64,000 bases of DNA from assembly GCA_016281915.1 (NCBI GenBank), contig JAEEJO010000012.1, forward strand, positions 30,029-94,028, written 5' to 3'. Numbering within the stretch: the stretch's first letter is position 1; each line of letters starts with the position of its first letter. The notes beneath the pieces were generated by a model. It saw nothing but the letters and a program-made list of their open reading frames with translations, was not told the origin of the DNA and made no database searches. The stretch is from Clostridiales bacterium. Its GTDB lineage: Bacteria > Bacillota > Clostridia > Oscillospirales > UBA644. Both the position numbers and the translations under genes were made by a program. Shown in pieces: positions 37,930 to 62,741 of this stretch.

Positions 37930-39339
37930 TTATTCGCCCCAGACAGCAGCGATACCGTTCATTGCGGGGATCGCGTATTCCTGCATTCTTTCGTTGATAA
38001 CATCGGCGTTGGATTCGAGGTATTCGGAAACGGACGTTGAAGCTCTCATCCAGTTATGCATAAAATCATACATGGGACTGTAATGAAAGTAGTTGTATAC
38101 GGAATTGAAATACATCTGATAAAATATCTCGGAGTCTCTTTTATCGTAAAAATAGTTTTTCGACATAAGCTCTATTACGGAATCGAGAGTGGGATATTCT
38201 TCAAACGGCTCATAAAGCTCGTTTATTGCCATTGCGCTCGCTTCGGGGAACTGTGAGAGTTTCGAAAACGCTATACATCTTTCAATATTGCCGTGCTGAC
38301 CTACGATATAGCCGGGTTCAACGTCCGGACCGGACGGCCAGCAGACAAGACCGAAATTGTCCATTTCTTTCGCTATTCTGCCTCTTATGCCTATAATGTC
38401 ATCGGTACCGAGAGGTCCGAGAACGGTCCTCTCGCTGATAAGAAAATCAACCGCGTTGGCAGAGCCGTTTATTGCGGCGGCGTTGGGTCCGAAATAAATA
38501 TCTATTCCTTTTTGCATCGCTTTTCTGGCAGCTTCGGAATAAAAACCGCAGACGTAGTTGCCGGACGCGTCCTTTTCAACGTAATGAGATCCGTTTGAAA
38601 GCAGGAACATAACTCCGAAGGTCGCCGGGCTTGACGTGAGAGAATAATACTTTACTTCGCTGCCCTCGGTAACAAAATAGTCGGCAAGGCACTGGTCGAA
38701 AGTATCCCATGTCCACTGTCCGTTCTCAAACAGGTCTCTCGGATCTGTAAAGCCCATGGCGGTTATTATATTTTCGTTTATTACGATCGGACTGCCGTAT
38801 GAAACGGAAATTTCGGGCCAAAGAAGAGGAACTACGCCGTATAGGTCGTCTTCATAATAAACGACTTCGAGCATACTTCTGTATCCCCATTTTTCCTCGT
38901 TGCGGAAATCGATATAGTCCTCAAGCTCCGAAAGGCCTACAAGCATACCTATTCTCGCGGTATCCGCCCACATATCGGAAATTCCGGAAATAACGTCGCA
39001 CACGAAAATGCCGGCTGCGGAAGTAGTAACGAATTCTGCGCTCGGATGAAAGCCGTTATCATAATTGATCGTAAGTTTGCAGTTCAGTTTTTCCTGCGTA
39101 TCTTTAATACGTTTTGCGGCAAGGTCGCCGAACTGAGAGTCTACCTCATAGCCGAGAATGGTAGACGTTATGCTTGAATTGACCACGACTTTATATATTA
39201 TTTCAAGACCCGAGAGGTCTATGCTGCCGGTGTCTTTATCGAATTCTTCGTCAAAAACCTCTGTTTCGGCGGTTCCGCATGCCGTTGCGATCATTGATAT
39301 AATAAAGGCAAGAATAAGAAGTTTAGCGATTTTTCTCAT
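37930..39339 (-). CDS. Solute-binding-protein-like lipoprotein, paralog A (family of six)
   Basis: 469 aa with signal peptide and lipobox IATAC|G. Long blocks are shared with 39423-40838, e.g. NEEKWGYR.MLEVVYYEDDLYG.VPLLWPEISVSY. The hinge-like DPRDLFENGQWTWDTF resembles the P.TWDEF motif of sugar SBPs. Confidence 0.7.
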   Translation of the reverse strand: MRKIAKLLILAFIISMIATACGTAETEVFDEEFDKDTGSIDLSGLEIIYKVVVNSSITSTILGYEVDSQFGDLAAKRIKDTQEKLNCKLTINYDNGFHPSAEFVTTSAAGIFVCDVISGISDMWADTARIGMLVGLSELEDYIDFRNEEKWGYRSMLEVVYYEDDLYGVVPLLWPEISVSYGSPIVINENIITAMGFTDPRDLFENGQWTWDTFDQCLADYFVTEGSEVKYYSLTSSPATFGVMFLLSNGSHYVEKDASGNYVCGFYSEAARKAMQKGIDIYFGPNAAAINGSANAVDFLISERTVLGPLGTDDIIGIRGRIAKEMDNFGLVCWPSGPDVEPGYIVGQHGNIERCIAFSKLSQFPEASAMAINELYEPFEEYPTLDSVIELMSKNYFYDKRDSEIFYQMYFNSVYNYFHYSPMYDFMHNWMRASTSVSEYLESNADVINERMQEYAIPAMNGIAAVWGE

Positions 39340-39357
39340 ATTTTACCCTTTTTTTTC

Positions 39358-39386
39358 ATTATAACATAATAACGGAGATTTGTCAA
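39358..39386 (-). promoter_or_regulatory. Promoter of paralog A-araD
   Basis: Minus strand reads TTGACA (39381-39386), 17-nt spacer, TATAAT (39358-39363), 19 nt upstream of the start codon. Confidence 0.7.
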
Positions 39387-39422
39387 TAGTTCGATCTCTC
39401 CGGAAAACGGGCGTAATTCGGC

Positions 39423-40838
39423 TTATTCGCCCCATAATGCGTCTATTCCGCGCATAGTCGGAAGGACATATTCGTCTATTTTTTGCTGTATCATATCCCT
39501 TGCGCCTTCGATATATTCCGCAGGGGTTTTGTTTGAGCTGAACCATTCATGCATATAGCCGTACATACCGTTGTAGTGGAAATAATTATATACGGAGTTG
39601 AAATACATTTTATAGAAAATCTCAGAGTCGCGTTTATCAAAGAAATAGTTGCGCGTCATAAGCTCTATTATCGAATCAATAGTTTCATATCCCTCAAACG
39701 GTTCGTAAACGGCGTTTATTATCGTTGCAGCGACTTCGGGATGAGCTGACATTCTTGAAAACGCTATGCATCTTTCGATGTTGCCGTGGTGACCTGCCGC
39801 GTAACCGGGCTCAACGTCGGGTCCGTTCGGCCATGAAAGAATGCCGAAATTATCCATTTCCTTTGCGATCCTTCCGGTAATGCCTATGATATTATCCGAA
39901 TTGACTGCGCCGAGGACTGTTGTGCCGGATATAAGCATCTGGAGCGGGTCGCCGGTCATATTGACCGTTTTTCCGTTCGGACCGTCAAAAATACGTCTTG
40001 CAGCCTCCATTGCCTTTACTCCGTTTGGCGTAAAGAAGCCCGGGATATATTTGCCCGACGCATCCTTTTCGGCAAAATGAGATCCGTTAGACAGGATAAA
40101 CATATTGCCTATCGTATCTCTGCTTGCGGTGAGAGAATACTGCTTTACTTCCCCGCCCTCTTCGATATAATACTGTCCGAGACATTCGTCAAAGGTGTCC
40201 CAGTTCCACTGTCCGTTTTCAAGAAGATCCCTCGGGTCCGCAACGCCCAGCGAAGAAAGCAGGTTTTCATTCACTACAAGCGGAGAGCTGTAAGATACGG
40301 ATATTTCGGGCCAGAGCAGCGGAACAAGTCCGTAAAGGTCGTCTTCGTAATAAACGACTTCAAGCATATTTCTGTAGCCCCATTTTTCCTCGTTGCGGTA
40401 GTCTATATAACCTTCAAGCTCTGTCATACCTATTACCATGCCGATCCTTGCAACATCCGCCCACATATCCGAAGTGCCTGAAATAACGTCGCACATAAAC
40501 ACTCCCGAAGCAGACGTAGCAACGAATGCGCGGCAGGATACGCCGTTGTTCACGTATTTCAGGTTGATCGAGCAGTTGTAATCGTTTTGTATATCCTTGA
40601 TTCGCTGCGATGCAAGATCGCCGAAGGTAGTATCAAGCTCATAACCGAGACAGTTAGGCACTGCAAGAGCACTTTCCGTAAGACCTATCTCGTAAACGAT
40701 GCCAACGCCTTCAAGATCCATTTTATCGTTTTTCATTTCATAATTCAGATCAAAGCTTTCCTGATCTTCTGTTCCGCACGCGCCGAGCGCCACGGAAGCA
40801 AGAATAAGAACTGCAAGCAGCAACGAAACTCTTTTCAT
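39423..40838 (-). CDS. Solute-binding-protein-like lipoprotein, paralog B
   Basis: 471 aa with lipobox ALGAC|G. Closest paralog of A, with most blocks identical by eye. Confidence 0.7.
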   Translation of the reverse strand: MKRVSLLLAVLILASVALGACGTEDQESFDLNYEMKNDKMDLEGVGIVYEIGLTESALAVPNCLGYELDTTFGDLASQRIKDIQNDYNCSINLKYVNNGVSCRAFVATSASGVFMCDVISGTSDMWADVARIGMVIGMTELEGYIDYRNEEKWGYRNMLEVVYYEDDLYGLVPLLWPEISVSYSSPLVVNENLLSSLGVADPRDLLENGQWNWDTFDECLGQYYIEEGGEVKQYSLTASRDTIGNMFILSNGSHFAEKDASGKYIPGFFTPNGVKAMEAARRIFDGPNGKTVNMTGDPLQMLISGTTVLGAVNSDNIIGITGRIAKEMDNFGILSWPNGPDVEPGYAAGHHGNIERCIAFSRMSAHPEVAATIINAVYEPFEGYETIDSIIELMTRNYFFDKRDSEIFYKMYFNSVYNYFHYNGMYGYMHEWFSSNKTPAEYIEGARDMIQQKIDEYVLPTMRGIDALWGE

Positions 40839-40869
40839 AATTATCTACCTCTCTTTTATCGGTAATTTT

Positions 40870-40898
40870 ACTATATCATAAATCGGCCTTTTTGTCAA
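40870..40898 (-). promoter_or_regulatory. Promoter of paralog B
   Basis: Minus strand reads TTGACA (40893-40898), 17-nt spacer, TATAGT (40870-40875). Confidence 0.65.
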
Positions 40899-41260
40899 TA
40901 AAAAACCATCAGCGATTAACCGAAAAAACCGTTCTGCCGTCACACTGTCAGTCCCCGTAGGTCTGAAGCCCGCCTCCGTGGCTTTTCATAATGTCTCTTC
41001 CTTCCTTGTCAGGCTGCTTTCCGCTCTTTTTATGACCGAAATACAAACAGATTCCAAAACATAACGCCCCTGGACCATATCGATCCGGAGGCGTTTTTGT
41101 TATTTCTGTTCTTATGGCAGATCTTCGGCGGAATTTCAGGGAAGAGCTGACCGATCTTCTCTGCGTCGCAGCCTGCGCCTGAAACAATCTTTTCCGTCTG
41201 TCTGTCTAACTGCTTTCACGTTTTTGGATCAGATAAGTCCCGTATATGAGTATTCACGGC

Positions 41261-42658
41261 CTATTCATTCAGAAGTTCGTCCAGAGTCCACGTAACGTTC
41301 TTGCTGATTGCTTCATTGATCGCATCCCTCGATGCACCGAAGGCCTCAGAAACGCTTTTTCTGCCGGTGACTACTAAAGTGATGTCGTTCGTCCATGAAC
41401 TGTATCCCTTTTCGAGATATATGCTTCCGTAGTTGAAGTTTAAGTTGTCTATGATATAGTTATATTCAGCATTGTCTTCTTCAGTATAGAATATCTGTTT
41501 TCTGAGTTCTTCCTGCCAGCCTCCGGATCCCTCCAGAGGTTCAAACATGAAATCTATGACTACCCCTATATCCTCAATATCCTTTCCGCTGCTTTTCAGA
41601 ACCCAGTTAAGACGTCTGTGGTGATGCACATAGCCTGAAATACTGTTTTCATCGCCATTCGGACCGTGCGGGAATCTGATAAGCCCATATGCAAAACCCT
41701 GGGCGGGAAGATAGTTTTGCGAAGAGGACTTTTCGAAATAGTGTGTTGCCCAGTATGACTCCTGAGTCATCATCGCCGCGTTCCGTTCCTGGACGAACAG
41801 TGCGGGACCCCGGGTAATATAGACATTCTCATTGTAAAGATCAGTCTGGAAATCGATTGCCGCCATGCCTTCGAGATTGTCAAAGCCGAAGGAATAATTC
41901 CCATATGTGCCGTCGATCATTTTAAGTCCGTTTGAAAACATAAAACCGATCGAATCAGCCGCGTATGACGTTCCGCATATCAGGGGGAAGAAATCCGATC
42001 CGTAGCCGGCGTCCTTTGCGGCAGACTGTATAGAAACAAGATATTCTTTGAAATGCTCCCAGTCCCACATTCCGTTTTCTTTAAGGTCATGGGGACTGCT
42101 GATTCCGAACGACGTGAGCATATCTGTATTGAACATCATAAGTCCGTGATACTCAGGCGGGAATTCCCATGAATAATGATAAAAGCCGTAATGCAGACCG
42201 TCAAATATACCATACTGCAGAAATCGCGGTGTTCCGTATTTGTTGGTGGAAAGATCGACGTGCGGGATATCTTCAATGGCATACAGAAGATTCATCTCGT
42301 AAAGCTGTCTTCCTCCGGCATCCGCATGGCTGTCAAGGAAATCGATAGTTTCAATGCCTGCGATATATTCAGTGAATATTCTGCTGCCGGCGTCTTCCCA
42401 GTCCACGGCTTCAAACGTACAGCCGTATTTTTCTTCAAGATCGTGTATTCGTTTATGCTCTCTGTCACCGGATTGGCTGAAAAAGGTAGAAGGCATGATC
42501 TCTTCTCTCCAGTTACTGCCCCACCTGTAGTGCTGTCCCGAAAGATCAATCTCGAATTCAACGGTGAAGTCCTCATCAAAAACCTCTTTGTTTTGTGTGC
42601 TGCAGGAAACGGTCGCGACAAGGAGTAAAATTAACAACATGACAAGTTTGTTTTTCAT
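41261..42658 (-). CDS. Solute-binding-protein-like lipoprotein, diverged paralog C
   Basis: 465 aa with lipobox ATVSC|S. It retains IDLSG, RIHDLEEKYGC and SPHDLKENGMWDWEHF, and has the same length and layout as A and B. Confidence 0.6.
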   Translation of the reverse strand: MKNKLVMLLILLLVATVSCSTQNKEVFDEDFTVEFEIDLSGQHYRWGSNWREEIMPSTFFSQSGDREHKRIHDLEEKYGCTFEAVDWEDAGSRIFTEYIAGIETIDFLDSHADAGGRQLYEMNLLYAIEDIPHVDLSTNKYGTPRFLQYGIFDGLHYGFYHYSWEFPPEYHGLMMFNTDMLTSFGISSPHDLKENGMWDWEHFKEYLVSIQSAAKDAGYGSDFFPLICGTSYAADSIGFMFSNGLKMIDGTYGNYSFGFDNLEGMAAIDFQTDLYNENVYITRGPALFVQERNAAMMTQESYWATHYFEKSSSQNYLPAQGFAYGLIRFPHGPNGDENSISGYVHHHRRLNWVLKSSGKDIEDIGVVIDFMFEPLEGSGGWQEELRKQIFYTEEDNAEYNYIIDNLNFNYGSIYLEKGYSSWTNDITLVVTGRKSVSEAFGASRDAINEAISKNVTWTLDELLNE

Positions 42659-42755
42659 TTTTTTGCCCCCGTATTTTATTTTATGTGTGCCGCCAAAACC
42701 TGCTCAGGACCATTTGAATGTGCCCGGTACAAAGCAGAATGCTTTTATTAACGCA

Positions 42756-42784
42756 ATTATATCATAGTAAACCATGTCTGTCAA
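42756..42784 (-). promoter_or_regulatory. Promoter of paralog C (leader of about 90 nt)
   Basis: Minus strand reads TTGACA (42779-42784), 17-nt spacer, TATAAT (42756-42761). Confidence 0.65.
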
Positions 42785-42884
42785 GAGATTTTGTTTTTAC
42801 GCTTCGTACAGTTAACAGTCAGATTCTGTATCGGCGCGAATACTTAACGGATCATTACTGCACGGACTTATTATCAAAACCGAC

Positions 42885-42934
42885 AATCCCACCTTGACTT
42901 TGATACGACAGTATCGGTCAGGGTGGGATTTTTC
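42885..42934. terminator. Strong hairpin terminator downstream of the DUF937 gene
   Basis: A 14-bp stem, AATCCCACCTTGAC (42885-42898) with GTCAGGGTGGGATT (42917-42930). The plus strand has a T5 run; the minus strand has GTCGGTTTT. Confidence 0.65.
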
Positions 42935-42992
42935 TAAAGTATTCAGATATGATAGCTGTTTAGACGTCAGGTGATTTGAGCGGTTTGGGATA

Positions 42993-43577
42993 CTACTTCA
43001 TGGAATTCATCAAAAGGCCGAGAAGCTCGCTGCCGTCGTCACCGTCGTCCTGTTTTCCGCCTCCGAAGAGTGAACCGAGAAGGCTTCCGGCTCCGGAAGA
43101 TGAACCGCCGAACAGACCGCCGAGAATCGAACCGAGTCCGCCGGACGATTGCTGTGTAGCCTGCTGAACGTTTGCCGTATTGGCAGCCGAAAGAGAACTC
43201 ATGAGAGCGGGAGCGATGGATGAAAGAACGGAGCTTACCTGATTCTCACTGATGCCTGACTGCTGCGCGAGCTGTGCGATATCTGCGCCCTGTTCAGAAC
43301 CGAGAATATGACCGATAATGGCGGCGCCGTCCTGCGTGTCGGCATTCGCGATCTGTTCAGCGATATTGGCTGTATCGGTATGCTGGGAAAGCGCTCCGAG
43401 AAGAGACGACGCGCCCTGCTGAGACTGTGCGTTGCTTGTAAGCTTCTTTATAAGAAGCGGGACCGCTGCGGAGATAAGTCCGCCGATAATATCCTTGGAT
43501 ATACCGGTTTTTTGAGAAGTGGCATTTACGGCGTTGTCGTCTGACAGTCCGCCCAGAAGTGTGGAAAGAAGGCTCAT
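42993..43577 (-). CDS. DUF937-like protein
   Basis: 194 aa, low-complexity and helical. LLGGLSDD.., ..PLLIKKLTSNA.., DGAAIIGHILG and SVLSSIAPALMSSL match my recollection of DUF937. Confidence 0.6.
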   Translation of the reverse strand: MSLLSTLLGGLSDDNAVNATSQKTGISKDIIGGLISAAVPLLIKKLTSNAQSQQGASSLLGALSQHTDTANIAEQIANADTQDGAAIIGHILGSEQGADIAQLAQQSGISENQVSSVLSSIAPALMSSLSAANTANVQQATQQSSGGLGSILGGLFGGSSSGAGSLLGSLFGGGKQDDGDDGSELLGLLMNSMK

Positions 43578-43736
43578 ATTGTTTACTCCTTTGTCATTTA
43601 AATACTTATATATTTATTTTCGGAATCTGATCGGAATATCCCGAAAAGATATCGTTGCTCGCGTCCGCGGATATGCTGCCGCAGGTATTCCTGTGTCAGA
43701 CGGACATCGAATATCATTGAGAGATCAATGCGCGTC

Positions 43737-44591
43737 TTATTCATTGGAGCCTGACTCGCTTTCGTTTGCCGTTTTTTCGTCCGGTTTTCGCTCCGGTCTC
43801 GATATGTTCAATAATTCTGTTTTTTTGAAATCATATTCTTCCTGAGTTATCAGTCCGTCATCAAGCATTTTCTTATACTCGCGAAGATCGTCGGTTGTCC
43901 GTCCTACGTCGCTCTTTTTTCCGCGCTTTTTCAGAAGTTTGATGATTACAATTATCAGAACAGCAGCCACGGCGACTATAGCTATGGCTATTGCAATTCT
44001 TATCAGCCACAACACAACAAAAGAATTAATATCATACTCGACGTGCAGTGAGGATTTTGATCCCATAGTCAAAAGGTTCCACGTCAGTGTTTTTCCGTCT
44101 TCCGAAACATATGAAGCATTATGGCTTATCGGCTTTACGGGAAGAATAAGAACGACTTCGGCGTATCCGCCCTGAGAGGAGATCATCGCACCGGCTGCAG
44201 CCAGTTGAGCAGCGCTGCTTTCTTCATCGTTTGTATTCCACGGAATATCGATTATATATTTTGATCCCTCTTTCGTCAGAGAGGCGGGGTTGTTGAAAAT
44301 TCCCTCTTTGAAATCGGGAACCTCATGTTTTGTCAGGACATATCCGTCGTAATCGCCATCTGAGTACGGAGTGCAGGTATAGCCCTGCTCTTGCAATGAT
44401 TTGATATTTTCTTCGTCTAAAATCGAATCTGTTCCCGCAAGCGACGCCATTGATTTTGAAATAGCATACTGTATTGAAATATCAACAGTTCCGGTACTGT
44501 TTACTTTTAAAGTCGCGCGCATTCGAACACAGCCAGTGAAAAGTAATAAAACAAAAGCCATGATCATTAAACATGATATAAATTTCTTCAT
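43737..44591 (-). CDS. LppM/DUF3153-like lipoprotein with a C-terminal TM helix and SHOCT domain
   Basis: Lipobox LFTGC|V followed by RMRATLKVNSTGTVDISI (LppM-like). TM helix WLIRIAIAIAIVAVAAVLIIVII. C-terminal LREYKKMLDDGLITQEEYDFKKTELL (SHOCT). Confidence 0.6.
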   Translation of the reverse strand: MKKFISCLMIMAFVLLLFTGCVRMRATLKVNSTGTVDISIQYAISKSMASLAGTDSILDEENIKSLQEQGYTCTPYSDGDYDGYVLTKHEVPDFKEGIFNNPASLTKEGSKYIIDIPWNTNDEESSAAQLAAAGAMISSQGGYAEVVLILPVKPISHNASYVSEDGKTLTWNLLTMGSKSSLHVEYDINSFVVLWLIRIAIAIAIVAVAAVLIIVIIKLLKKRGKKSDVGRTTDDLREYKKMLDDGLITQEEYDFKKTELLNISRPERKPDEKTANESESGSNE

Positions 44592-44629
44592 AATAGTCTC
44601 CGTTCAACCAAAATATTTCTGCATTACCA

Positions 44630-44845: not shown

Positions 44846-44875
44846 ATTATATCAAATTCCCGCCCGTTTTGTCAA
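44846..44875 (-). promoter_or_regulatory. Promoter of the small-protein/LppM-SHOCT unit
   Basis: Minus strand reads TTGACA (44870-44875), 18-nt spacer ending in TGa, TATAAT (44846-44851). Confidence 0.5.
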
Positions 44876-51198: not shown

Positions 51199-52422
51199 TC
51201 AGTCTTTCCGGACAAAACCGAGTTCGATTTCCTGCAAAACCATGCCGTAAGCGCTGTCGGGCGGATTGGATGCAAGCTCGGTGCCGAGCCAGATTTTTGT
51301 AAAATTGCCGGAATAGCATATATACATTCTTTTTCCGTCCGCAGAAATGAATTTTGAAGGGAAGTTTACAAAATAAGCCTGCTCACCGAAATCCTTCATA
51401 TACGTTACAAGCTTCCACTCTCCCGTAAGACATTCGCTTTCAAGAATATACGTATTCATCCTTGAAACAGTGTCTCTTCCGTCTGTCACCGCCATAAAAT
51501 ACCGTTTCAGCGGCGCATTGTAGGTTACGGTAACGCAGCCCATATTGTTTTACCATTCAAGAAGAGGTTCAATTCTGCTGAAATCGCCGGTCTATACGGC
51601 GTTCCCGTTGCGGTCTTTTCCCGCATAGAACTCGTAGGCGGAGGGATCGTTGATTGTTTCGGGTGAAGGCGTGACCCTTATAAGATATATCTGGTCTCCG
51701 GTTATCCAGCTTAAATGCGCAAAGTTTTCCACCGCAACAGGATAGAATTTAAGGCTCGACCCGTGAGCGACAAGATACGCTTTCCCGTCCGGCGAATGAT
51801 CCATGTTTCTGCCGAAATCGACAAAATGAGGCGAACCGATTCTTACTGAGTAGCCTGCCAGTCCGTTTTCGCCGAAAATAGGCTTTTCGGGAGTATGCGG
51901 ACACGGAAGCCACGTTTTTCCGGGATCTTTTGAAATGCGGAATCCTACAAACGGGCCCAGATGGGGCCAGTTATATATTTTGTCTCCGTATTTCGTGGAA
52001 CCGTAGGGCGAAAGACAGTATGTGCCGTAATACCACACGCCGTTATAAACAAGGCTTCCTCAGGGATACCGTCCGCCGTAGGGATAGGTCGTTGCCGACT
52101 GATTTTCAAGCGATATCAGTTTAAGATCGAGCGGATCGTCGCCCTCCATAATCGCCTGTCCCGTCTGGGTTGTATAGTCTGCGATAATGCTTTCGTGGTT
52201 GTTGTAAACCCTCATTCCAGAACCGGAATGGACGCCTTCCGTCACGCCGTCGGTGAACGGAGAATAGCAGTTTCCGTCGCTCGCCCATGACGGATACCAC
52301 GTGTCTGCAACGGGGTAATGTCTGCTTTTACCGGTAAAGCGAATTTCGTTAAAAAGCTCCGACGATCTGAACGGAATATCCTTTGGCGGTTCACTTTTCC
52401 AAACAAACGGTTCAAACGACAT
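51199..52422 (-). pseudogene. Beta-propeller glycosidase-like gene (DUF4185-like) disrupted by three in-frame stop codons
   Basis: Track ORFs 52060-52422, 51592-52038 and 51199-51543 are all in one frame (408 codons). They are interrupted only by TGA (52060-52062), TAG (51592-51594) and TAA (51550-51552). The sequence is continuous across the stops (..GGRYP*GSLVYNGVWYYGTY.., ..NGNAV*TGDFSRIEPLLEW*NNMGCVTV..). Confidence 0.7.
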
Positions 52423-53840
52423 CAGTGATTCCCTGCTTTCTCAATAAAATCGTTATAAGACTTGTCAATATAACCCTGAACTTTTTCTTCAATTGAAGCA
52501 AACGCCTCGGCAGCCGTTTTATTGCCCCTGGTGATCTGTTGAAGAGCAGGTCTGATAGTGTTGTTAAAATCTACGAGGACCGAATAATCGTAGACCGCTG
52601 TATTGAGCATCTCTTCATAGTATTCGAAAGACCTGCTGCTGTAGAAATTGTTACGTTCAAAGGCATCCTGCCAGGTTTCCTCGGTCTCGCCCGGAAGCGG
52701 CTGAAAAAGATAAGGAAGAAGAACTTCGTGAACGCTCATATCGGAGTTTGCGGGTGCATAGAAAAATCTGCTCCATAAGCTGTATACGCTTCTGGCTTTC
52801 ATATCCTGTCCATGGGGACCTCTCGGGAAATATATCCATTCAAAGGGATGTTCTATCCTCGTGGCAAGATTGCCCGCGCCTTCATAGGCAAACGCTATAT
52901 GCGAATACTGAAGGAAAAATGCAGACCTGTCTTCAATAAAGTGAACGATATTGAATCTGTCCCCTATATCTACTATCAGATCTCTGTCAGAAAGACTTCT
53001 GACAAAATCCATTGCTTCGATCGCCTCGGGACTGTTGAGCGCGAATCTCATTTTTCCGTCTTCGCCTATTTCGGCAAGCTTTGCGTTGTTTGAATAAAGA
53101 ACGGACGTTTCAAGACAAACCTCATTGGTGTAGCCGCAACCGAAGGTCTGCTTGTTGATGTCGGGATCGGATGAATCTCTGACGGCTTCGCAGATACTTT
53201 CAAATGCCTGCCATGTCCACTCTCCCTGTTCGTCGAGCTCATGGGGCGACGGCTGCCTGAAATTGCTGAGGGTCACCGGATTAAACCACATGTTCAGCGC
53301 TATATCAGCAGGAGGCAATCCCCAGTAGTACGCCATAACGGAATAGTAGTCATCTCCGAATCTGCCCGCTTCGAGCGAGGGGTCAGGACCGTAAATTCCG
53401 CAGTGAAGATCTATGTCCATATCCGAAAAAGCATACATATATCCGTTTTGTATATAATTGTTTCCCCATATATTGGTCAACATTGAAAAGAGAAGATCTG
53501 CATATTTCCTGCCTACCGCCCAGTATGCCTGAAACAGGTTGAAATCAATGCCGTTCACGGGAGTAATCGTTATGTTGTATTTTTCCTCCGCATCCCTGTA
53601 ACGCTGAAGCAGTCTGTCGCCTCTTAAATCGGCACCGGGCTCGGGATTCATAGCATATGAAAGCGTGCCCGATCCATGGGCAGCGGCAGCTATAACATAT
53701 TCATAACCGAGAAGATCCGCTTCGTTTATGTCGATCTGCATGGCGTATTCGGGAACGGTTTCATTCCCGGCAGCAGAACACGCACCGAAAATTAAAATAA
53801 GAAACATTGCAAGAGAAACGAGTTTTATGCTCTTTTTCAT
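52422..53840 (-). CDS. Solute-binding-protein-like lipoprotein, diverged paralog D
   Basis: 472 aa with lipobox IFGAC|S. It retains SPHELDEQGEWTWQAFE and the family layout. Its stop overlaps the ATG of the downstream pseudogene (TGATG). Confidence 0.6.
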   Translation of the reverse strand: MKKSIKLVSLAMFLILIFGACSAAGNETVPEYAMQIDINEADLLGYEYVIAAAAHGSGTLSYAMNPEPGADLRGDRLLQRYRDAEEKYNITITPVNGIDFNLFQAYWAVGRKYADLLFSMLTNIWGNNYIQNGYMYAFSDMDIDLHCGIYGPDPSLEAGRFGDDYYSVMAYYWGLPPADIALNMWFNPVTLSNFRQPSPHELDEQGEWTWQAFESICEAVRDSSDPDINKQTFGCGYTNEVCLETSVLYSNNAKLAEIGEDGKMRFALNSPEAIEAMDFVRSLSDRDLIVDIGDRFNIVHFIEDRSAFFLQYSHIAFAYEGAGNLATRIEHPFEWIYFPRGPHGQDMKARSVYSLWSRFFYAPANSDMSVHEVLLPYLFQPLPGETEETWQDAFERNNFYSSRSFEYYEEMLNTAVYDYSVLVDFNNTIRPALQQITRGNKTAAEAFASIEEKVQGYIDKSYNDFIEKAGNH

Positions 53841-53877: not shown

Positions 53878-53906
53878 AGTATAGCAATTATACAGGAAAA
53901 TGTCAA
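53878..53906 (-). promoter_or_regulatory. Promoter of paralog D
   Basis: Minus strand reads TTGACA (53901-53906), 17-nt spacer, TATACT (53878-53883). Confidence 0.6.
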
Positions 53907-54035: not shown

Positions 54036-54064
54036 TTGACAACCTCCGATTAGTGTGATATTAT
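54036..54064 (+). promoter_or_regulatory. Promoter of paralog E (divergent from D)
   Basis: TTGACA (54036-54041), 17-nt spacer ending in TGa, TATTAT (54059-54064). Confidence 0.65.
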
Positions 54065-54161
54065 AGCAGCATAAAACAGGAAACAAAACACCCGTTTTTA
54101 ACTGCCAACGCGCCTGTCAGGCGATAAGAAAACAAATTTGAGCGGAAAGGAACACGGAACG

Positions 54162-55595
54162 ATGAAAACTGCGATAAAGACATTGATTCTTGTATTTTTG
54201 TCCATAGTTATTCTTGTTGCATGCGAAACCGGAGAACACGAAGTATTCGATCTTGATATGACTTTGCAAAACGAGAAAACAGACCTTGAAGGCGTAACCA
54301 TAAAGTATATGCGCAGAACCGGCGATCAGTCATTCAGTGCCGACGACGAACAGGTTCTGGGCTACGCAGTAAATACCGTGCTTGCAGATCTGGCAGTTCA
54401 AAGAATAAAGAACGTTCAGGACGATCTAAACTGTATACTGGATATCTCTTATTATTCAGACGGCTCTGTTGGAACTGATTTCAGAATGAGCATCGCTGCG
54501 GGAATGTATTTCTGCGATATATTCACGGGAGTTTCGGATACGTTCAGAAACAGCATGAAAGCAGGTGCGCTTGTCGGTCTTTCGGAGCTCGGTGATTATA
54601 TCGATTACCGCAATGAAAGCAAATGGGGCAATCGCAACGTTCTCGAAATACTTTACTGGAATGACGACGTTTTCGGATTGATTCCCGCCGCATGGCCTAC
54701 GTCGTCGGTTTCATACAGAGGACTGACTGTAGTTAACGAGGATCTTATCACCGCTCTGAACGCCGAAGATCCCCGCGATTTATTTGAAAGCGGAAAATGG
54801 ACGTGGGAGACGTTCCGCGAATGTCTTGAAAAATACTACGTTGAGGAAGGCGGCGAAGTGAAGCATTACGCCCTGTCTTCTTCCGGATCCGACCTGGGAG
54901 CGAACTATCTTCTTTCAAACGGGTTCCGTGTAGCGAAAAAAGGGCCCGACGGCAATTATCATTCGGGAATAACCGAACCTTCCGCTCTTGACGCCATGAA
55001 CGAAGCAAATTACGTTTTCAACGGCGCGCTTTCATTTACGGTAGATAAACGCGGAGGAAACACCACGCCGGTAGAAGCGCTTATTGCGGGCAAAACAGTG
55101 CTTGGCGTTATGCACTACGTTGAATACGTAACAAGCAATATTGCCAAGACAATGACGAATTTCGGGCTTTTGCCGTGGCCCTCGGGTCCGAACGTTGAGC
55201 CTGGATATATGGCTACGCATTATACTAATCTTGAAAACGTTATCGTTATTCCCCAGACTTCGCCGAATCTCGAGGCAACCGCTCTGACTCTTGACGCGCT
55301 TTATGAACCCTTTGAAGAATACCCCGATATTAACGCAGTAAAAGATCTTTTATATCACACCTACTTTTTTGACCGCCGCGACGCTGACATCTATTTCGGA
55401 ATGTTCCTTAACACCCAGTTCACGGCACTCGGCGCTCCGACGAATGTAGCACTCGGCGAATGGGTCGTAAGCAGACAGGCGCCTTCGGAATTTATAGAGT
55501 CAAACATAACAAGCCTGGAAGAATACATAGAAGAAGAAGTTGCGCCCTCCAAAAAAGCGATCGATTTTATATGGGGCAGCGAACAGCAGAATTAA
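54162..55595 (+). CDS. Solute-binding-protein-like lipoprotein, paralog E
   Basis: Start set to the ATG at 54162 (MKTAIKTLILVFLSIVILVAC|E), after GGAAAGGAA. Shares YIDYRNESKWG, DPRDLFESGKWTWETF, NFGLLPWPSGPNVEPGY, LYEPFEEYP and YFFDRRDAD with A, B and F. Confidence 0.7.
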   Translation: MKTAIKTLILVFLSIVILVACETGEHEVFDLDMTLQNEKTDLEGVTIKYMRRTGDQSFSADDEQVLGYAVNTVLADLAVQRIKNVQDDLNCILDISYYSDGSVGTDFRMSIAAGMYFCDIFTGVSDTFRNSMKAGALVGLSELGDYIDYRNESKWGNRNVLEILYWNDDVFGLIPAAWPTSSVSYRGLTVVNEDLITALNAEDPRDLFESGKWTWETFRECLEKYYVEEGGEVKHYALSSSGSDLGANYLLSNGFRVAKKGPDGNYHSGITEPSALDAMNEANYVFNGALSFTVDKRGGNTTPVEALIAGKTVLGVMHYVEYVTSNIAKTMTNFGLLPWPSGPNVEPGYMATHYTNLENVIVIPQTSPNLEATALTLDALYEPFEEYPDINAVKDLLYHTYFFDRRDADIYFGMFLNTQFTALGAPTNVALGEWVVSRQAPSEFIESNITSLEEYIEEEVAPSKKAIDFIWGSEQQN

Positions 55596-57505: not shown

Positions 57506-57532
57506 ATGATTCTCCTTCTCACTGTTTTTTTA

Positions 57533-57561
57533 ATTCTACTCTATTCGCGGCGCTTTGTCAA
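57533..57561 (-). promoter_or_regulatory. Promoter of the SGNH esterase gene
   Basis: Minus strand reads TTGACA (57556-57561), 17-nt spacer, TAGAAT (57533-57538). Confidence 0.6.
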
Positions 57562-57621
57562 TACCGTCGCGCCATACTGAAAGAAAACGTCACGCCTTCA
57601 CAACGGAAATATGATCATTTA

Positions 57622-57671
57622 CCCGAAAAAGGATACAACAATGGCATCCGTCTTCTTGAGCGGACGCCATT
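57622..57671 (-). terminator. Probable terminator after the 590-aa gene
   Basis: Imperfect stem AATGGCGTCCG/CGGATGCCATT on the minus strand, followed by GTTGTATCCTTTTT. Confidence 0.45.
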
Positions 57672-57706
57672 TATGAACAGTATTAGTTTTACGGCTGAAA
57701 ATATGA

Positions 57707-59479
57707 TCAGTCAGTTATTTTTTTAAGCTCCGGAATTACCTCTGCCAAAGTAAGAAGGTTACTCGTTTCGGACCAGCAGCTGCCGTTGAAAACGCCACCG
57801 ATACAGCGGTCATCTTCCCAGTCAGACATATTCACCCTTTCGTTTATAAAGCCTTCCGGCAGTATATGCGGTGAATCGGGACATTTTTTGTCATTTTCGT
57901 TTGAGTCCCAGTCATATATCGGATCTTCCGAAGTAGACATATACTGACCGATAGTAAGCGCAATATCTCTGATCAGTTCAAGGTATAATCTGTCTTTGGT
58001 TATGCGCCATAATTTAAGAAGACTGTCTCCCGAAAGCGTGCAGATACCGGGCGCGGAATGCTTGTTTTGAATATTTGCGAATACGCTGCCCACGGTTTTC
58101 ATGCCATGTCTTGCAAATTCAGAGCCTTCAGGGAACCGATAGTTATAGCTTACGACCCAGCTGCTGCAATAGTGGGCGCATTCACAGGCATAATCAAGCC
58201 ATTTGCCGTCGTGCGTCGTTTCGTAAAGGATGACGAAGCTTTCGAGAAGTCCGAAAGCGCTCTCGCTGTCAACGCCCTGAAGTATTTCACCGGGTCCTCC
58301 GCTCGTGAAGCCTTTGCTCAGGAATTCGCGGTAATAACGTTCTGCGCTCTCTTCTGCGGTGACAAGGTATTTTTTGTCGCCGAAATACGTATATGCTCTT
58401 GCGAGACCTGCAGGGGCAATTCCTGCAGAAACTGATCCGCCGGCTATTATATCTCCTGATTCAATATCAACAAAATGACCGAACTGTCCGTATTTTTCGT
58501 GAAGTCGAACAAAGGCATCGGCTGTTTTTTTCGCGCCTGTTATAAAACCTTCCGGAATGCTTATATTTCTCTCTTTCATCAGATCAAAATGCTTGAAAAG
58601 GAAATACAGAACGTCTGCCGATTTTCTTATAAGATGCCAGTTATCCTCGCCCTCAACGCTGAAAGCATCGCCGTATGAGATTCCGTCGGCATCAATAACG
58701 CCTTCAAAAAAGCCGCTTTTTCCCTGCGTTGAAAACAGGAAATAAAGAGTTTTCATTTCGCGCTCCGCTTCGGTTTTTCCTCCGAGACGCATAAGCGCGT
58801 ATCCGCTCAGCGTTCCCCCCGTCCATCCGGGCTGCCAGACCTGAAAACGTGTTCTGTCCGTGCCGACCATATATATACCGAGCTTTTCATCCCAGTTCAT
58901 TGCATTGAATTTTTCTACCTGTATTACCGCCTGGCGTTCGTGAGGCATAACATCTGGTCTTGAAGAATCCATACCCATTATTTTTCTGTTTTCGAAGAAT
59001 GTTCTGAAAAATTCCGCAAGGCTGCTGCAGCAAAAATCAATTATCTTATACGGAATTTCCGCAGGCAGGTCTTTCCATGGCACCGGATTTTCAAACGTGC
59101 GCGTCATGCGATATATTTTTTCTCTTTTTGCAGGCCACGACAAGGTGATACTGCCTTTTTCATATGCAAGTCCGATATTTTGCCCATCGATCTGCTGAAC
59201 GGTGAATACCAGGATGCCTCTCTTGAGTTTTTTTGAAAAAACGCCTACGCACGGTGTCGCAGCGTCGCCTGTTGTTACCTCTATTTTACCGCTGCCGTCA
59301 GGTTCAAGCCTGGGAACGTCCGTTATCGTGTTTTGCATTTCGACGTCCGCATCTCCCGGACGGAACATCGGCGGATAGCCGTATTTAAGTGTTCTGAACT
59401 GATTGCCCGCATAGCAGCAGGCGGGAATGAAAACGTAATTGTCTTCGGATTCAAAAATAGGTATATTCTTTAATGCCAT
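57707..59479 (-). CDS. Hypothetical 590-aa cytoplasmic protein, possibly an alpha/alpha-toroid glycoside-hydrolase-like enzyme
   Basis: A long clean ORF with no signal peptide. The C-terminal ~350 aa are rich in helix-pair-like segments. No family motif was recognised with confidence. Confidence 0.4.
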   Translation of the reverse strand: MALKNIPIFESEDNYVFIPACCYAGNQFRTLKYGYPPMFRPGDADVEMQNTITDVPRLEPDGSGKIEVTTGDAATPCVGVFSKKLKRGILVFTVQQIDGQNIGLAYEKGSITLSWPAKREKIYRMTRTFENPVPWKDLPAEIPYKIIDFCCSSLAEFFRTFFENRKIMGMDSSRPDVMPHERQAVIQVEKFNAMNWDEKLGIYMVGTDRTRFQVWQPGWTGGTLSGYALMRLGGKTEAEREMKTLYFLFSTQGKSGFFEGVIDADGISYGDAFSVEGEDNWHLIRKSADVLYFLFKHFDLMKERNISIPEGFITGAKKTADAFVRLHEKYGQFGHFVDIESGDIIAGGSVSAGIAPAGLARAYTYFGDKKYLVTAEESAERYYREFLSKGFTSGGPGEILQGVDSESAFGLLESFVILYETTHDGKWLDYACECAHYCSSWVVSYNYRFPEGSEFARHGMKTVGSVFANIQNKHSAPGICTLSGDSLLKLWRITKDRLYLELIRDIALTIGQYMSTSEDPIYDWDSNENDKKCPDSPHILPEGFINERVNMSDWEDDRCIGGVFNGSCWSETSNLLTLAEVIPELKKITD

Positions 59480-59536
59480 ACAGCGTCAATCTCCTTTACC
59501 GTTACTGCCCGGCAATGCCGAACAGTCTTTTTACGT

Positions 59537-59566
59537 ATTATATCACACATAGGGCAAAAAAATCAA
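59537..59566 (-). promoter_or_regulatory. Promoter of the 590-aa gene
   Basis: Minus strand reads TTGATT (59561-59566), 18-nt spacer ending in TGa, TATAAT (59537-59542). Confidence 0.5.
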
Positions 59567-59697
59567 CCCCTTTTTGGTCGGAAGGTGTCCTTAAAAAGTA
59601 TAAAGAGATATCGTCTTAACCGCATTTAAGTGAAATATCTCACTTTTCTGCGCTGTCGTCGATAACGCTCTTTAGATGACGCCGATATTAAGAGCAG

Positions 59698-59726
59698 TTG
59701 ACAAACGGGATAAAATGTGTTATGGT
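59698..59726 (+). promoter_or_regulatory. Promoter of the HD-domain / acetyltransferase unit
   Basis: TTGACA (59698-59703), 17-nt spacer ending in TGt, TATGGT (59721-59726). Confidence 0.55.
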
Positions 59727-59806
59727 TATTATAATTAAAAACATGTATTATTGAAATCAGACCGTAAAAAAGGTCAGTCTTGTTTGACTGACCCGGAGGA
59801 TAACAG

Positions 59807-60463
59807 ATGAATTATGAAAATGTTAAAAATGACGAAGCGGTGCGGACCTATGTAAAGGCAGCGGACGAAAGTCTTGCAATGCTGGGATTTACCGAGCACA
59901 GCTTTGCCCACGTTACCGCGGTAGCCGAAAAGACGGGGTATATCCTTGAAACGCTCGGTTATCCGCAGAGAATCGTTGAACTCGGAAAAATAGCAGGTCT
60001 GCTGCATGATATAGGCAATCTGATAAACCGTGTTGACCACAGTCAGAGCGGAGCGATGATGGCGTTTCGTATCCTTGACCATATGGGTTTTCCGCCCGAA
60101 GAGATCGCAATGATAGTTTCTGCCATCGGCAACCACGATGAAGGAACCGGCGTTCCCGTAAGTCCTCTTGCGGCGGCGCTCATTCTTGCAGATAAGTCTG
60201 ATGTCCGTCGCAGCCGCGTAAGGAATACCGAGCTGACGAACTTTGACATTCACGACCGCGTAAACTATTCGGTCACAAAAGCCGAGCTGAAAATCAATGA
60301 GGCTCATTCGCTGATAAAGCTTAAACTGCAGGTCGATACCCGGGTAGGTTCCGTAATGGAATACTTCGAGATATTTATGGAGCGAATGATACTCTGCAGA
60401 AAAGCGGCAGAAACACTCGGGCTGAAATTCAAGCTGATGATAAACGAGCAGCAGCTTATTTAA
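59807..60463 (+). CDS. HD-domain phosphohydrolase
   Basis: 218 aa with H..(AH)...LLHDIGN...H...HD, matching the HD superfamily metal ligands. Confidence 0.75.
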   Translation: MNYENVKNDEAVRTYVKAADESLAMLGFTEHSFAHVTAVAEKTGYILETLGYPQRIVELGKIAGLLHDIGNLINRVDHSQSGAMMAFRILDHMGFPPEEIAMIVSAIGNHDEGTGVPVSPLAAALILADKSDVRRSRVRNTELTNFDIHDRVNYSVTKAELKINEAHSLIKLKLQVDTRVGSVMEYFEIFMERMILCRKAAETLGLKFKLMINEQQLI

Positions 60464-60479
60464 GATCGGGGAAGGCTTT

Positions 60480-61091
60480 ATGACGCATTATGAACGCATG
60501 GTAAAGGGTCTGATCTACGACCCTGCAGATCCCGAAATAATGAAAGAACAGGCACTGTATCAGGAGAAGCTCGCGGCATTCAAAAGGCTCACACCGAGCG
60601 ACCATAAAAAGAAGCAGAAATATATGCATGAGGTGTTTGCGGAATGCGGTGACAACTGCCGGATCGAGCTTCCGTTCCGCGCAAACTGGGGCGGACATCA
60701 CCTTCATCTCGGCTCGGGAGTATATGCAAATTTTAATCTTACGCTTGTTGACGACGGACACATATACGTCGGTGACAGAGTGTTGTTCGGGCCGAATGTG
60801 ACGGTTGCGACCGCAAATCACCCGATAGATCCTGAGCTCCGCTCAAAGGGTCTTCAATATAACAAAAACGTTTATATTGGGGAAAACGTATGGATCGGCG
60901 CCGGCGCGGTAATAGTCCCCGGGGTCCACATCGGGAAAAACAGCGTGATAGGCGCCGGAAGCATAGTGACAAGAGATATCCCCGAAGGCGTTGTTGCGGC
61001 AGGCAACCCGTGCAGGGTCATGAGAGAGATTTCCGAAAAAGACAGAATATTCTTTTACAGAGACGAAAAGATCGATCCCGAAATCCTGTAG
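60480..61091 (+). CDS. maa: Sugar O-acetyltransferase (maltose/galactoside acetyltransferase family, left-handed beta-helix)
   Basis: 203 aa with an N-terminal Mac-like helix (MVKGLIYDP) and hexapeptide repeats IGENVWIGAGAVIVPGVHIGKNSVIGAGSIV. Confidence 0.85.
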   Translation: MTHYERMVKGLIYDPADPEIMKEQALYQEKLAAFKRLTPSDHKKKQKYMHEVFAECGDNCRIELPFRANWGGHHLHLGSGVYANFNLTLVDDGHIYVGDRVLFGPNVTVATANHPIDPELRSKGLQYNKNVYIGENVWIGAGAVIVPGVHIGKNSVIGAGSIVTRDIPEGVVAAGNPCRVMREISEKDRIFFYRDEKIDPEIL

Positions 61092-61150
61092 GAATAAAAA
61101 CCGCGGAAAGGTCTGTGAGCGGCGCACGGGAAACATGCGATCTTCGATTG

Positions 61151-62581
61151 TTATTCTTGTCCCCAGACGGACACAACGCCTCTCTTTGAGGGGGCGACCT
61201 CTTTTGCGATATGCTCGTCTACCGCTTCAAGATGAGATTCGATATATTCCGTAGGACTCTTATTGTAATCGAGCCATTCAAACATAGTGTTCCACGTAAC
61301 TGTTCCGAAATAAGAATACTGGGAATTGAGGAACATATCGTAATACATATCGGCGTCTCTGCGGTCAAAGAAATAAGTATGGAAAAGGAATTCTCTTATC
61401 GATTCGGTAGTAGGATATTCTTCAAACGGTTCGTAAAGCGCGTTTAACGCTATAGCTGCGGATTCAACGTTGGGCGAAAAACGAGAAATGACGATAGCTC
61501 TTTCAAGATTGAAATGGCTTGCTGTAATGAAGCCGGGATCGACATCCGGTCCTGACGGCCACGTTATAACGCCGAAGTTAGTCATTTCCCTTGCCAGGTT
61601 TTCAAGGTATTCCGCCTGATGAAGAACACCGAGGACGGTCGTTCCGTTTTTGAGAGCATCCAAATGGTTTTCATTAATACTTACCGTATATGAAAGAGGG
61701 CCGTTTACTATATCGAGCGCTTCATTCATTGCGGTCATTGCCTTAGGATCATGAAGCCCTGATCTGTAATTGCCGTCAGGACCTTTTTCGGCGAGTCTGA
61801 ATCCGTTTGAAAGGATATAGACCATGCCTACGTCTCCTCTGTACTGGAAAGTGACCGCGTATTGTTTTACTTCATTTCCTTCCTGAACATGATACTGTTC
61901 AAGATAGTCGCGAAGCGTCTGCCAGGTCCACTGGCCGTTTTCATATAAATCTCTGGGATCTGCTGCATTGACGGCGGAAATAAGGTCTTCGTTTATAACG
62001 GTCAGTCCCTGATACGATACCGACGATGCGGGCCATGACATCGGGATAAGACCGTAAACGTCGTCTTCCCAGTAAAGGACTTCAAGAATGTTTCGTCTGC
62101 CCCATTTTTCCTCGTTGCGGTAATCGATATAATCTTCAAGCTCCGAAAGGCCCATCAGAGCGCCTGTTTTCATATCCTCGCGGAATCTGTCAGAAACGCC
62201 GCAGAAGATATCGCAGTAATACTCGCCTATAGAATTGTTCATTCTGAAATTGTTGTAATCCGCGTATCCCGAGCCTGTGTCGGAAAAATACTTTATGTCA
62301 AACTTACAGTTCAGGCTGCTTTCAACGTCCTTTATGCGCTGCATCGCAAGATCGCCCAGAACGGTTCCGATCTCATACCCCAGCACCTGTTCGCTGCCGG
62401 TATAGTGAATACCCTGTCCGCCTGTTTCGCGAAGGTATCTGATGGTTACGCCTTCAAGATCCGTTGTTTCGGCCTTGAACGAATAATCCACGTCAAACAC
62501 TTCACTCTCTTCGCTGCCGCATGCAGCAAGCATGACAATTGACAAAAACACAAAAATAAACGTTTTTACTGCTGTTTTCAT
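61151..62581 (-). CDS. Solute-binding-protein-like lipoprotein, paralog F
   Basis: 476 aa starting MKTAVKTFIFVFLSIVMLAAC|G. Closest to paralog E, with the same conserved blocks. Confidence 0.7.
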   Translation of the reverse strand: MKTAVKTFIFVFLSIVMLAACGSEESEVFDVDYSFKAETTDLEGVTIRYLRETGGQGIHYTGSEQVLGYEIGTVLGDLAMQRIKDVESSLNCKFDIKYFSDTGSGYADYNNFRMNNSIGEYYCDIFCGVSDRFREDMKTGALMGLSELEDYIDYRNEEKWGRRNILEVLYWEDDVYGLIPMSWPASSVSYQGLTVINEDLISAVNAADPRDLYENGQWTWQTLRDYLEQYHVQEGNEVKQYAVTFQYRGDVGMVYILSNGFRLAEKGPDGNYRSGLHDPKAMTAMNEALDIVNGPLSYTVSINENHLDALKNGTTVLGVLHQAEYLENLAREMTNFGVITWPSGPDVDPGFITASHFNLERAIVISRFSPNVESAAIALNALYEPFEEYPTTESIREFLFHTYFFDRRDADMYYDMFLNSQYSYFGTVTWNTMFEWLDYNKSPTEYIESHLEAVDEHIAKEVAPSKRGVVSVWGQE

Positions 62582-62712
62582 TCCGATGCATTCCTTTCGT
62601 GGTTAATGACCGATACCCGTCTGCCTCGCAAAAAGAGCATTGATTATCTCTATTCTCACTGCGCAGACCGCTTTCGGCAACGCTCCCGTTTCCGCGCGTT
62701 TTTACTGTAAAC

Positions 62713-62741
62713 AGTATATCAAATTTACAAAACAATGTCAA
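62713..62741 (-). promoter_or_regulatory. Promoter of paralog F (leader of about 125 nt)
   Basis: Minus strand reads TTGACA (62736-62741), 17-nt spacer ending in TGa, TATACT (62713-62718). Confidence 0.65.

Follow-up and report, generated by a model that had tools for sequence, protein, structure and literature searches.

Orphan solute-binding-protein-like lipoproteins form a divergent, expanded family in an uncultured ruminant-gut Clostridia lineage

What is the role of six related lipoproteins of the solute-binding protein (SBP) type when no ATP-binding cassette (ABC) permease gene lies beside any of them? The question is raised by a 64,000-nucleotide stretch of a Clostridiales genome (GenBank assembly GCA_016281915.1, contig JAEEJO010000012.1, positions 30,029 to 94,028), referred to here as the window. 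An initial annotation, made from the sequence alone, described six such open reading frames (ORFs), here called copies A to F. All six are present where it placed them, with translations of 465–477 aa (Table 1). Each begins, as described, with a basic-hydrophobic signal peptide followed by a lipobox Cys (A and B end in ...ACG, C in ...SCS, D in ...ACS, E in ...ACE and F in ...ACG). The start of copy E is the ATG at 54162, not the TTG at 54138 given by the ORF lister, and an independent gene call also yields 477 aa. The six ORFs are clear paralogues. In full-length alignments to A, identity is 58% for B, 42% for F, 41% for E, 24% for C and 21% for D, in agreement with the earlier description of C and D as much more diverged. 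E and F are 57% identical to one another. The conserved sequence blocks first quoted for the family are correct overall but contain single-residue slips (A reads YIDF and YFYD, B reads VYEPFEGY, and the block in F ends in ...WQTL). A family hidden Markov model (HMM) search finds no members in the window beyond these six. The six proteins are surface-tethered lipoproteins of the MalE/UgpB type (CUT1 class), and they belong to a divergent subfamily that is expanded in one uncultured ruminant-gut Clostridia lineage.

The curated Pfam thresholds are not reached by any of the six copies. The best SBP scores are 22.5 bits for copy E against SBP_bac_1 (cutoff 26) and 17.8 bits for copy B against SBP_bac_8 (cutoff 27). 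Copies A, C, D and F have no SBP-family match in Pfam, and NCBIfam returns nothing relevant. A precomputed PF01547 match is present in 4 of 71 homologues. A profile of the six copies matches AbnE, an arabino-oligosaccharide binder (6rjy), with E = 3.5e-7, and matches maltose and trehalose binders more weakly. The AlphaFold2 models of copy B (predicted local distance difference test (pLDDT) 90.2; predicted template modelling score (pTM) 0.83) and copy D (pLDDT 78.8) have strands and helices that alternate as in a two-lobe binding protein. When these two models are searched with Foldseek, the matches at a probability of 1.0 are solely ABC sugar binders and maltose-binding protein fusions, with target-normalised template modelling scores of ~0.65–0.72. 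More than 900 PDB matches have E <= 0.001, and the top ones are all MalE-type SBPs. The matches include Thermotoga maritima MalE, a beta-glycoside-binding protein (7c6i, 7c68), Lmo0181, GacH, CbpB and AbnE. For copy D, the top matches are the beta-glycoside-binding protein 7c6i, Lmo0181, GacH and AbnE. The profile match to AbnE, the models and the structural matches bear out the SBP fold that had been proposed. Judged from profiles and predicted structures, the SBP fold is established, as is homology to oligosaccharide receptors of the CUT1 class, and by sequence the proteins rank as new, Pfam-invisible members of the CUT1 receptor superfamily. Across the wider family, a strict lipobox pattern is present in 152 of 162 full-length copies, and on inspection most of the others also show a lipobox, overlooked by the pattern or cut off by the ORF start.

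Scores below the Pfam thresholds would also fit a fold re-used for another purpose, with the proteins acting, for example, in catalysis, in assembly of the cell envelope or as structural components of the surface. Many invariant charged residues of the family (DPRD, FFD.RD, D146 and K152) are not general CUT1 motifs, and mycobacterial orphan SBP-like lipoproteins are reported to have envelope roles (PMC12802301). The nearest sequence and structure matches, however, are all true oligosaccharide binders, the genomic context is mainly sugar catabolism and not envelope synthesis, and the variation between paralogues fits divergent ligand pockets. Re-use of the fold is very unlikely.

CUT1 binders are usually, if not invariably, encoded with two BPD_transp_1 permease genes. 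The lack of adjacent permeases extends beyond the window. A contig scan of one genome per species, seeded with 16 closer sequences, finds 148 stretches that encode a relative. Eighty of these matching stretches are covered, at ~40–230 kb per genome; the 74 loci in which copies are counted amount, with the window, to ~1.18 Mb. A locus extends at most 10 kb to either side of its matched copy, and contigs of 100–200 kb carry many of the loci. Permease HMMs are built from the five most distant loci (L070–L074; 23–25% identity to copy B), which are labelled Roseburia, Faecalimonas, Lachnospiraceae, Bacteroides and an unclassified bacterium. Here two permease genes with six transmembrane segments directly precede the family relative, and the HMMs recover both permease pairs in each locus. 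Only these distant relatives, most of them with a Lachnospiraceae label, retain the usual pair. The same HMMs, run at E <= 10 with filters off, find no CUT1 permease in loci L001–L069 or around the window copies. The orphan status first noted for the six genes therefore holds for every copy, in the window and in ~170 further instances from related genomes. It also holds for tandem arrays, as no permeases are present between or beside arrays of 4–8 copies (L035, L082). As first described, the only ABC membrane components in the window are a pot-like pair and one exporter; the sole BPD_transp_1 permeases are the pot-like pair, and the pair and the exporter are both more than 30 kb from the nearest copy.

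These searches bear directly on whether the copies are ordinary SBPs whose cognate permease operons are missed by the window, a case that the initial annotation had itself raised as damaging to its proposal. The finite length of 64 kb is the one point in its favour. It is contradicted by the ~170 copies and the tandem arrays, none of which has such a permease nearby, and is extremely unlikely. The few ABC permeases that do occur in the loci have other assignments. In L054 and L062, the BPD_transp_2 pairs are parts of complete systems, each of which has a two-domain ATPase and a lipoprotein binder of its own (at 3388–4593 and 4074–5345, respectively). The BPD_transp_1 permease in L064 (235 aa, with a 242-aa ATPase) is of the amino-acid type, judged by size, and comes from a distant lineage. 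Other multi-spanning membrane proteins encoded near copies (MatE, MFS, FtsW, FeoB, P-type ATPases, MacB/FtsX and DUF218) were considered as partners and rejected, none being recurrent.

The canonical relatives in L070–L074 (~5.1–13 kb) share a gene order of their own. An upstream gene of ~850 aa (not in L072 or L074) is followed by the two permease genes and the SBP gene. In L071, the one locus of the five compared with Pfam, the upstream protein is a DUF5696 member (E = 7e-192) and a second SBP gene follows, and in L070 a 529-aa gene comes after the SBP gene.

The family was first presented as having six members, which is true of the window and understates the family. The family HMM finds 178 copies in the 74 loci. 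Seven related ruminant-gut metagenome-assembled genomes (MAGs) contain at least 16–27 copies each. As lower bounds, there are at least 27 in RGIG8738, at least 25 in RGIG2778, at least 24 in Tb.RUG.167, at least 22 in RUG12846, at least 19 in SIG516, at least 18 in SRR10912533_bin.8 and at least 16 in MAG48. Tandem arrays of 3–8 copies are frequent (L035, L054, L063 and L082). The 162 full-length copies fall into 56 groups at 60% identity, which indicates that most of the duplications are old. A word-indexed protein search returns 71 clusters, and the few with a named source are from uncultured Clostridia, Ruminococcaceae or Oscillospiraceae MAGs. HMMER searches over 1.84 billion representatives return 376 clusters (50% identity) with E <= 1e-30 and 2,850 with E <= 1e-10. 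Beyond these 2,850 clusters the family profile grades into the general SBP superfamily. DNA runs that contain the window sequence are from goat and other gut metagenomes.

In RGIG2778 and two metagenome scaffolds, a prophage-like block (terminase, SPP1-type portal, scaffold and P22-type coat) is located ~3 kb from a copy pair (L078/L079/L080, ~12.4–19.8 kb).

Individual window copies have relatives at different distances. Copy A is 99% identical to a copy in RGIG2778, the orthologues of copy E in L019 and L022 are 86–87% identical to it, and copy C has 59% identity to copies in L015 and L029. Copy F is also recovered on an independent 20.8-kb Joint Genome Institute (JGI) contig. Between orthologues, the ratio of nonsynonymous to synonymous substitution rates (dN/dS) is 0.07–0.15; it is 0.09 for the neighbouring glycoside hydrolase (GH) gene of family GH2 and 0.09 for the SGNH esterase gene. 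These ratios indicate that the copies are maintained by selection, and they rule out diversifying selection or antigenic variation. Among 17 orthologue groups, 48 alignment columns are conserved in all groups and 30 are conserved within groups but differ between them. Several of the group-specific columns are opposite MalE sugar-contact residues, as placed by a low-confidence hhalign alignment and motif matching by eye. Tentatively, such columns might fit ligand pockets that have diversified.

The region directly after the lipid anchor has a motif of its own in the orphan copies. Glu is at position +6 in 108 of 152 copies and is followed by two hydrophobic residues, [PD], [ED] and [YF]. The motif (for example, residues 22–34 of copy B) is in a region with an AlphaFold pLDDT of 31–44. 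It is absent from the nearest canonical, permease-paired relatives, which have a low-complexity acidic linker of 40–60 residues instead. Retention of a linear motif across paralogues that are ~21% identical suggests a common partner or tether.

The genes beside the copies vary between loci, but many encode cytoplasmic enzymes of sugar catabolism. All-versus-all clustering of 985 genes gives a family cluster of 175, and the next largest cluster has 10. Genes up to two positions away from a copy belong to 177 different clusters, and no partner recurs among them. In 7 genomes, a copy has the araD-like gene directly beside it. RGIG2778 and two scaffolds from metagenomes of other samples have a FucI-like isomerase gene, two copies, some small genes, two further copies, the araD-like gene and GH2, in this order. 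Elsewhere, a beta-helix protein gene is followed by two copies. One locus has an operon-like run of GH29, LamG, SIS, ROK and PIG-L deacetylase genes that is closed by a copy, all on a single strand, and another has ThuA, AP_endonuc_2, a copy, GH29 and LamG. DUF4838 and UxuA genes adjoin an eight-copy array. This neighbourhood is the pattern of a Gram-positive polysaccharide-utilisation locus without the two permease genes. The GH2, GH127, GH29 and SGNH esterase proteins of the window have no signal peptides. The neighbouring glycosidases and esterases are thus cytoplasmic, and their substrates must be imported.

The initial annotation proposed plant or arabinose-containing glycans as ligands. 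This is plausible for copies A and B, which have the conserved araD/GH2/FucI-like context, but the neighbours of the other copies differ. Given the range of neighbours (GH29/SIS/ROK/PIG-L in one place; UxuA, ThuA or the beta-helix protein in others), the family as a whole probably covers many glycans. One of the neighbours that had been cited, the GH29 gene, is outside the interval given for the family, at 28667–29908.

The varied neighbourhood also bears on a role for the paralogues as sensors, in the manner of SBP-dependent three-component systems, that report particular glycans to membrane signalling proteins (for example histidine kinases, Ser/Thr kinases, anti-sigma factors). Stimulation of sensor kinases and of chemoreceptors by SBPs is known (review PMC8050422), and no regulator genes are beside the window copies, so any glycan-responsive regulation must originate elsewhere. 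However, the genes for sensor-type SBPs usually adjoin their signalling genes (PMC8050422), and no signalling gene recurs among the 177 neighbour clusters; the contexts annotated with Pfam contain no sensor kinase or other signalling gene beside a copy. The presence of at least 16–27 copies per genome without an adjacent partner is hard to reconcile with that usual adjacency. A sensor role is accordingly given little probability.

Receptors that share a transporter give the simplest joint account of the SBP fold, the lipid anchor, the catabolic neighbours, the cytoplasmic location of the glycosidases and the purifying selection. The chances are about even that the copies are working oligosaccharide receptors whose shared membrane partner or partners are encoded elsewhere. 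Under this model, the paralogues would bind different ligands and deliver them to the shared transporter. Each paralogue would have a strong promoter to itself or be expressed along with a few genes for cytoplasmic catabolic enzymes, and would be lipid-anchored on the outer face of the membrane. It would bind one type of oligosaccharide released from plant or host glycans. The ligand would then be passed to a single ABC permease/ATPase set, or a small number of them, encoded at other loci and common to many paralogues, and the imported ligand would be degraded by the cytoplasmic glycosidases and sugar-phosphate enzymes encoded beside the binders.

Several points weigh against shared-transporter receptors. 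CUT1 permeases normally add to specificity and co-evolve with a single binder. To our knowledge, there is no experimentally established precedent for one permease common to at least 20 sugar binders. Outside the pot-like operon of the window, the ~1.18 Mb contains no sugar-type BPD_transp_1 permease as a candidate for the shared partner and no MsmX/MalK-type ATPase. No RNA runs that contain the sequence are found. The Pfam scores below the gathering thresholds make a divergence from the classical function possible.

Some of these points are shared by a permease-independent capture function, in which the lipoproteins would form a lectin-like surface layer that holds oligo- or polysaccharides, so that they can be taken up by another route or the cell can adhere to plant particles. 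A permease link is missing in ~170 instances, the sampled DNA has no MsmX-type ATPase, and the orphan-only motif after the anchor could mean that the proteins are tethered or docked in a new way. Other sugar carriers are also possible, such as the orphan PTS_EIIC_2 permease beside GH29. On the other side, the neighbouring glycosidases are cytoplasmic, which calls for import, and no other oligosaccharide importer recurs near the copies. By textbook account, a closing two-lobe SBP fold suits small ligands and their hand-over to a partner. Copy A is, in addition, apparently co-transcribed with a cytoplasmic catabolic enzyme. Surface capture is unlikely. A more specific form, in which the lipoproteins are independent of any ABC transporter and make up a diversified glycan-capture layer docked through the post-anchor motif, as a Gram-positive counterpart of the surface glycan-binding proteins of Bacteroidetes, is decidedly unlikely.

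A TTGACA box, a 17-nt spacer and a TAxxxT box precede all six copies, as the initial annotation reported, and all six promoter-like sites also have an extended -10 TG (Table 1). These sites do not distinguish the family. The same near-perfect consensus is present at 44875 (before an LppM-domain gene), 48459 (before GH127) and 48665 (near the start of a DUF1538 gene). Because it is also found at unrelated genes, strong promoters are a trait of the genome and not a mark of the family. The stop codon of copy A abuts the start of the araD-like gene, and a strong hairpin terminator at 37187–37214 closes the pair. The two genes are probably co-transcribed, and copy A is not an independent unit. Copy F is monocistronic, as the next downstream gene is on the opposite strand. 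Regulatory RNAs in the long leaders of C, E and F were considered and rejected; Rfam has no matches across the window, and the leaders are unconserved among orthologues.

Table 1. Positions of the family members, their promoter-like sites and the araD-like gene in the window.
Feature	Position	Strand	Description	Score
Copy A	37930..39339	-	469-aa SBP-fold lipoprotein	family HMM 708 bits
Copy B	39423..40838	-	471-aa SBP-fold lipoprotein	family HMM 728 bits
Copy C	41261..42658	-	diverged 465-aa member	family HMM 345 bits
Copy D	52422..53840	-	diverged 472-aa member	family HMM 357 bits
Copy E	54162..55595	+	477-aa member, divergent from D	family HMM 636 bits
Copy F	61151..62581	-	476-aa member	family HMM 645 bits
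Promoter-like site, copy A	39358..39386	-	TTGACA-17-TATAAT + TG; within the 83-nt B-A gap	12/12 matches
Promoter-like site, copy B	40870..40898	-	TTGACA-17-TATAGT + TG	
Promoter-like site, copy C	42756..42784	-	TTGACA-17-TATAAT + TG; leader ~90 nt	
Promoter-like site, copy D	53878..53906	-	TTGACA-17-TATACT + TG	
Promoter-like site, copy E	54036..54064	+	TTGACA-17-TATTAT + TG; back to back with the D promoter	
Promoter-like site, copy F	62713..62741	-	TTGACA-17-TATACT + TG; begins 160 nt before the start codon; leader ~125 nt	
araD-like gene	37220..37927	-	class II aldolase/epimerase (Aldolase_II)	E = 5.6e-50

The DNA around copy A is not uniform in its similarity to RGIG2778 (L003, JAFRTE010000001.1). 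The araD-like gene, copy A and the A promoter (37073–39400) are ~100% identical to that genome except for one 200-nt bin at 78%, and the flanks on both sides are 65–86% identical. This near-identical block stems either from a chimeric metagenome assembly or from recent exchange between genomes of separate species-level groups.

The remainder of the window is ordinary Clostridia chromosome. It holds tex, an arginine biosynthesis cluster at 13–22.6 kb, and genes for a GDPD protein, GH2, MatE, GH127, DUF1538 with P-II-like genes, an SGNH esterase, an HD protein and a Mac-type acetyltransferase. The pot-like ABC importer is encoded on the minus strand at 1659–8940 and consists of an ATPase with a TOBE_2 domain, two permeases (5841–7828), one of which is unusually long at 373 aa, and an SBP_bac_8 binder. 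The gene for a 789-aa ABC exporter (3315–5684) and a DUF1854 gene separate the permease genes from the binder gene. An orphan phosphotransferase system (PTS) permease gene, PTS_EIIC_2 (27460–28554, minus strand; E = 3.5e-88), is divergent from the GH29 alpha-L-fucosidase gene on the plus strand and is not in the initial annotation. The annotated ORFs of the window include no other PTS components, and the related loci have no PTS_EIIC_2 homologue.

The gene after copy D (51199–52422, minus strand) has an ATG that overlaps the stop codon of D. It is one frame of ~407 codons with three in-frame stops (TGA at 52060, TAG at 51592 and TAA at 51550), and the same stops are present in the independent JGI contig L081. 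The label "DUF4185-like" that had been given to this gene is not upheld, as Pfam has no match even when its three pieces are joined. Two paralogous pairs of VTC-domain and DUF4956 genes are located at 22812–27314 and 62911–64000 (counterpart in L081, 103–1480). One pair follows the gene for a 1057-aa CotH kinase-like protein with LTD domains, and the other is just upstream of copy F. Between the SGNH esterase and HD genes, 57707–59479 (minus strand) encodes a 590-aa cytoplasmic protein without a Pfam match above threshold. Its similarity to the catalytic domain of GH127 (E = 0.0014) and to the C terminus of a C5-epimerase is faint, and it may represent an undescribed family of glycoside hydrolases or isomerases.

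Counting SBPs and ABC operons is a standard way to predict the diets of gut bacteria. Since the family is below Pfam thresholds and is mostly labelled "hypothetical", the substrate range of the ruminant-gut lineage would be underestimated by such counts. If the shared-transporter model is true, a sugar ABC importer would be one engine with dozens of exchangeable receptors. Such a scheme has so far been proposed only for the family of tripartite tricarboxylate transporters (TTT), with its Bug receptors, and, on a small scale, for importers of peptides and amino acids. If no matching permease exists in the genomes, a transporter receptor would have become a surface glycan binder that acts alone. 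In both cases, the ~376 clusters (50% identity) provide a panel of proteins that are candidates for binding oligosaccharides from plant and host glycans.

The closest known proteins are the CUT1 binders, among them AbnE of Geobacillus stearothermophilus (6RJY), the MalE proteins of Escherichia coli and T. maritima, the beta-glycoside binder of PDB 7C6x, Lmo0181 and GacH. The family shares with AbnE and the CUT1 binders the two-lobe type II fold, and it has the lipoprotein signal typical of Gram-positive SBPs and a context of arabinose or oligosaccharide catabolism. Identity in structural alignments is 12–16%, and the family proteins are ~50–90 residues longer, as measured against the Foldseek target lengths. 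DPRD..ENG.W.W, FFD.RD and the post-lipobox motif are specific to the family. AbnE is encoded with AbnF and AbnJ, and MalE with MalFGK, whereas the family genes are never beside permeases.

In their heavy over-representation, the copies resemble the Bug/TctC receptors, a precedent for the shared-transporter model, of which there are 76 in Bordetella pertussis and up to 434 in Rhodoplanes (PMC11452294). In Bordetella, there are few sets of Bug membrane components, most Bug genes have none nearby, and distant shared partners have been proposed; the catabolic or biosynthetic genes with which they are associated in the genome give hints of the ligands (PMC11452294). The present family likewise has tens of paralogues per genome (at least 16–27), mostly without adjacent membrane components and with catabolic neighbours. 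The Bug receptors, however, belong to the TTT family, are in the Gram-negative periplasm and bind carboxylates, whereas the Clostridia proteins are ABC/CUT1-type, lipid-anchored and, by context, associated with glycans. Their matches are MalE-class ABC binders and not TctC, and the resemblance to Bug is in genome organisation only.

A second precedent is found in Bifidobacterium, whose family-1 SBPs (for example, the paralogues of LT-SBP BL105A_0502) are in tandem and in some genomes have no adjacent permeases, and their membrane components are suggested to be encoded elsewhere (PMC8110962). Those genes are few per genome and have a canonical operon in related strains, unlike the ~170 copies described here, for which no member of the lineage has the canonical arrangement. 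Several receptors can serve one membrane engine, as with MppA (the subject of PMC3173086) and OppBCDF in E. coli and with HisJ and ArgT, which use HisQMP. These are sets of two or three peptide or amino-acid receptors, however, and not dozens of sugar receptors. The stand-alone SBPs of ChvE-VirA, CBP-ChiS and the three-component sugar sensors of Clostridia also have a main partner other than an adjacent transporter (PMC8050422). Unlike the orphan family, near which no signalling gene recurs, their SBP genes adjoin signalling genes. The genome organisation of the family is a variant of the known phenomenon of over-represented orphan receptors, and what is new in it is that sugar receptors of the ABC type, as orphans, have expanded on a large scale within a Gram-positive lineage.

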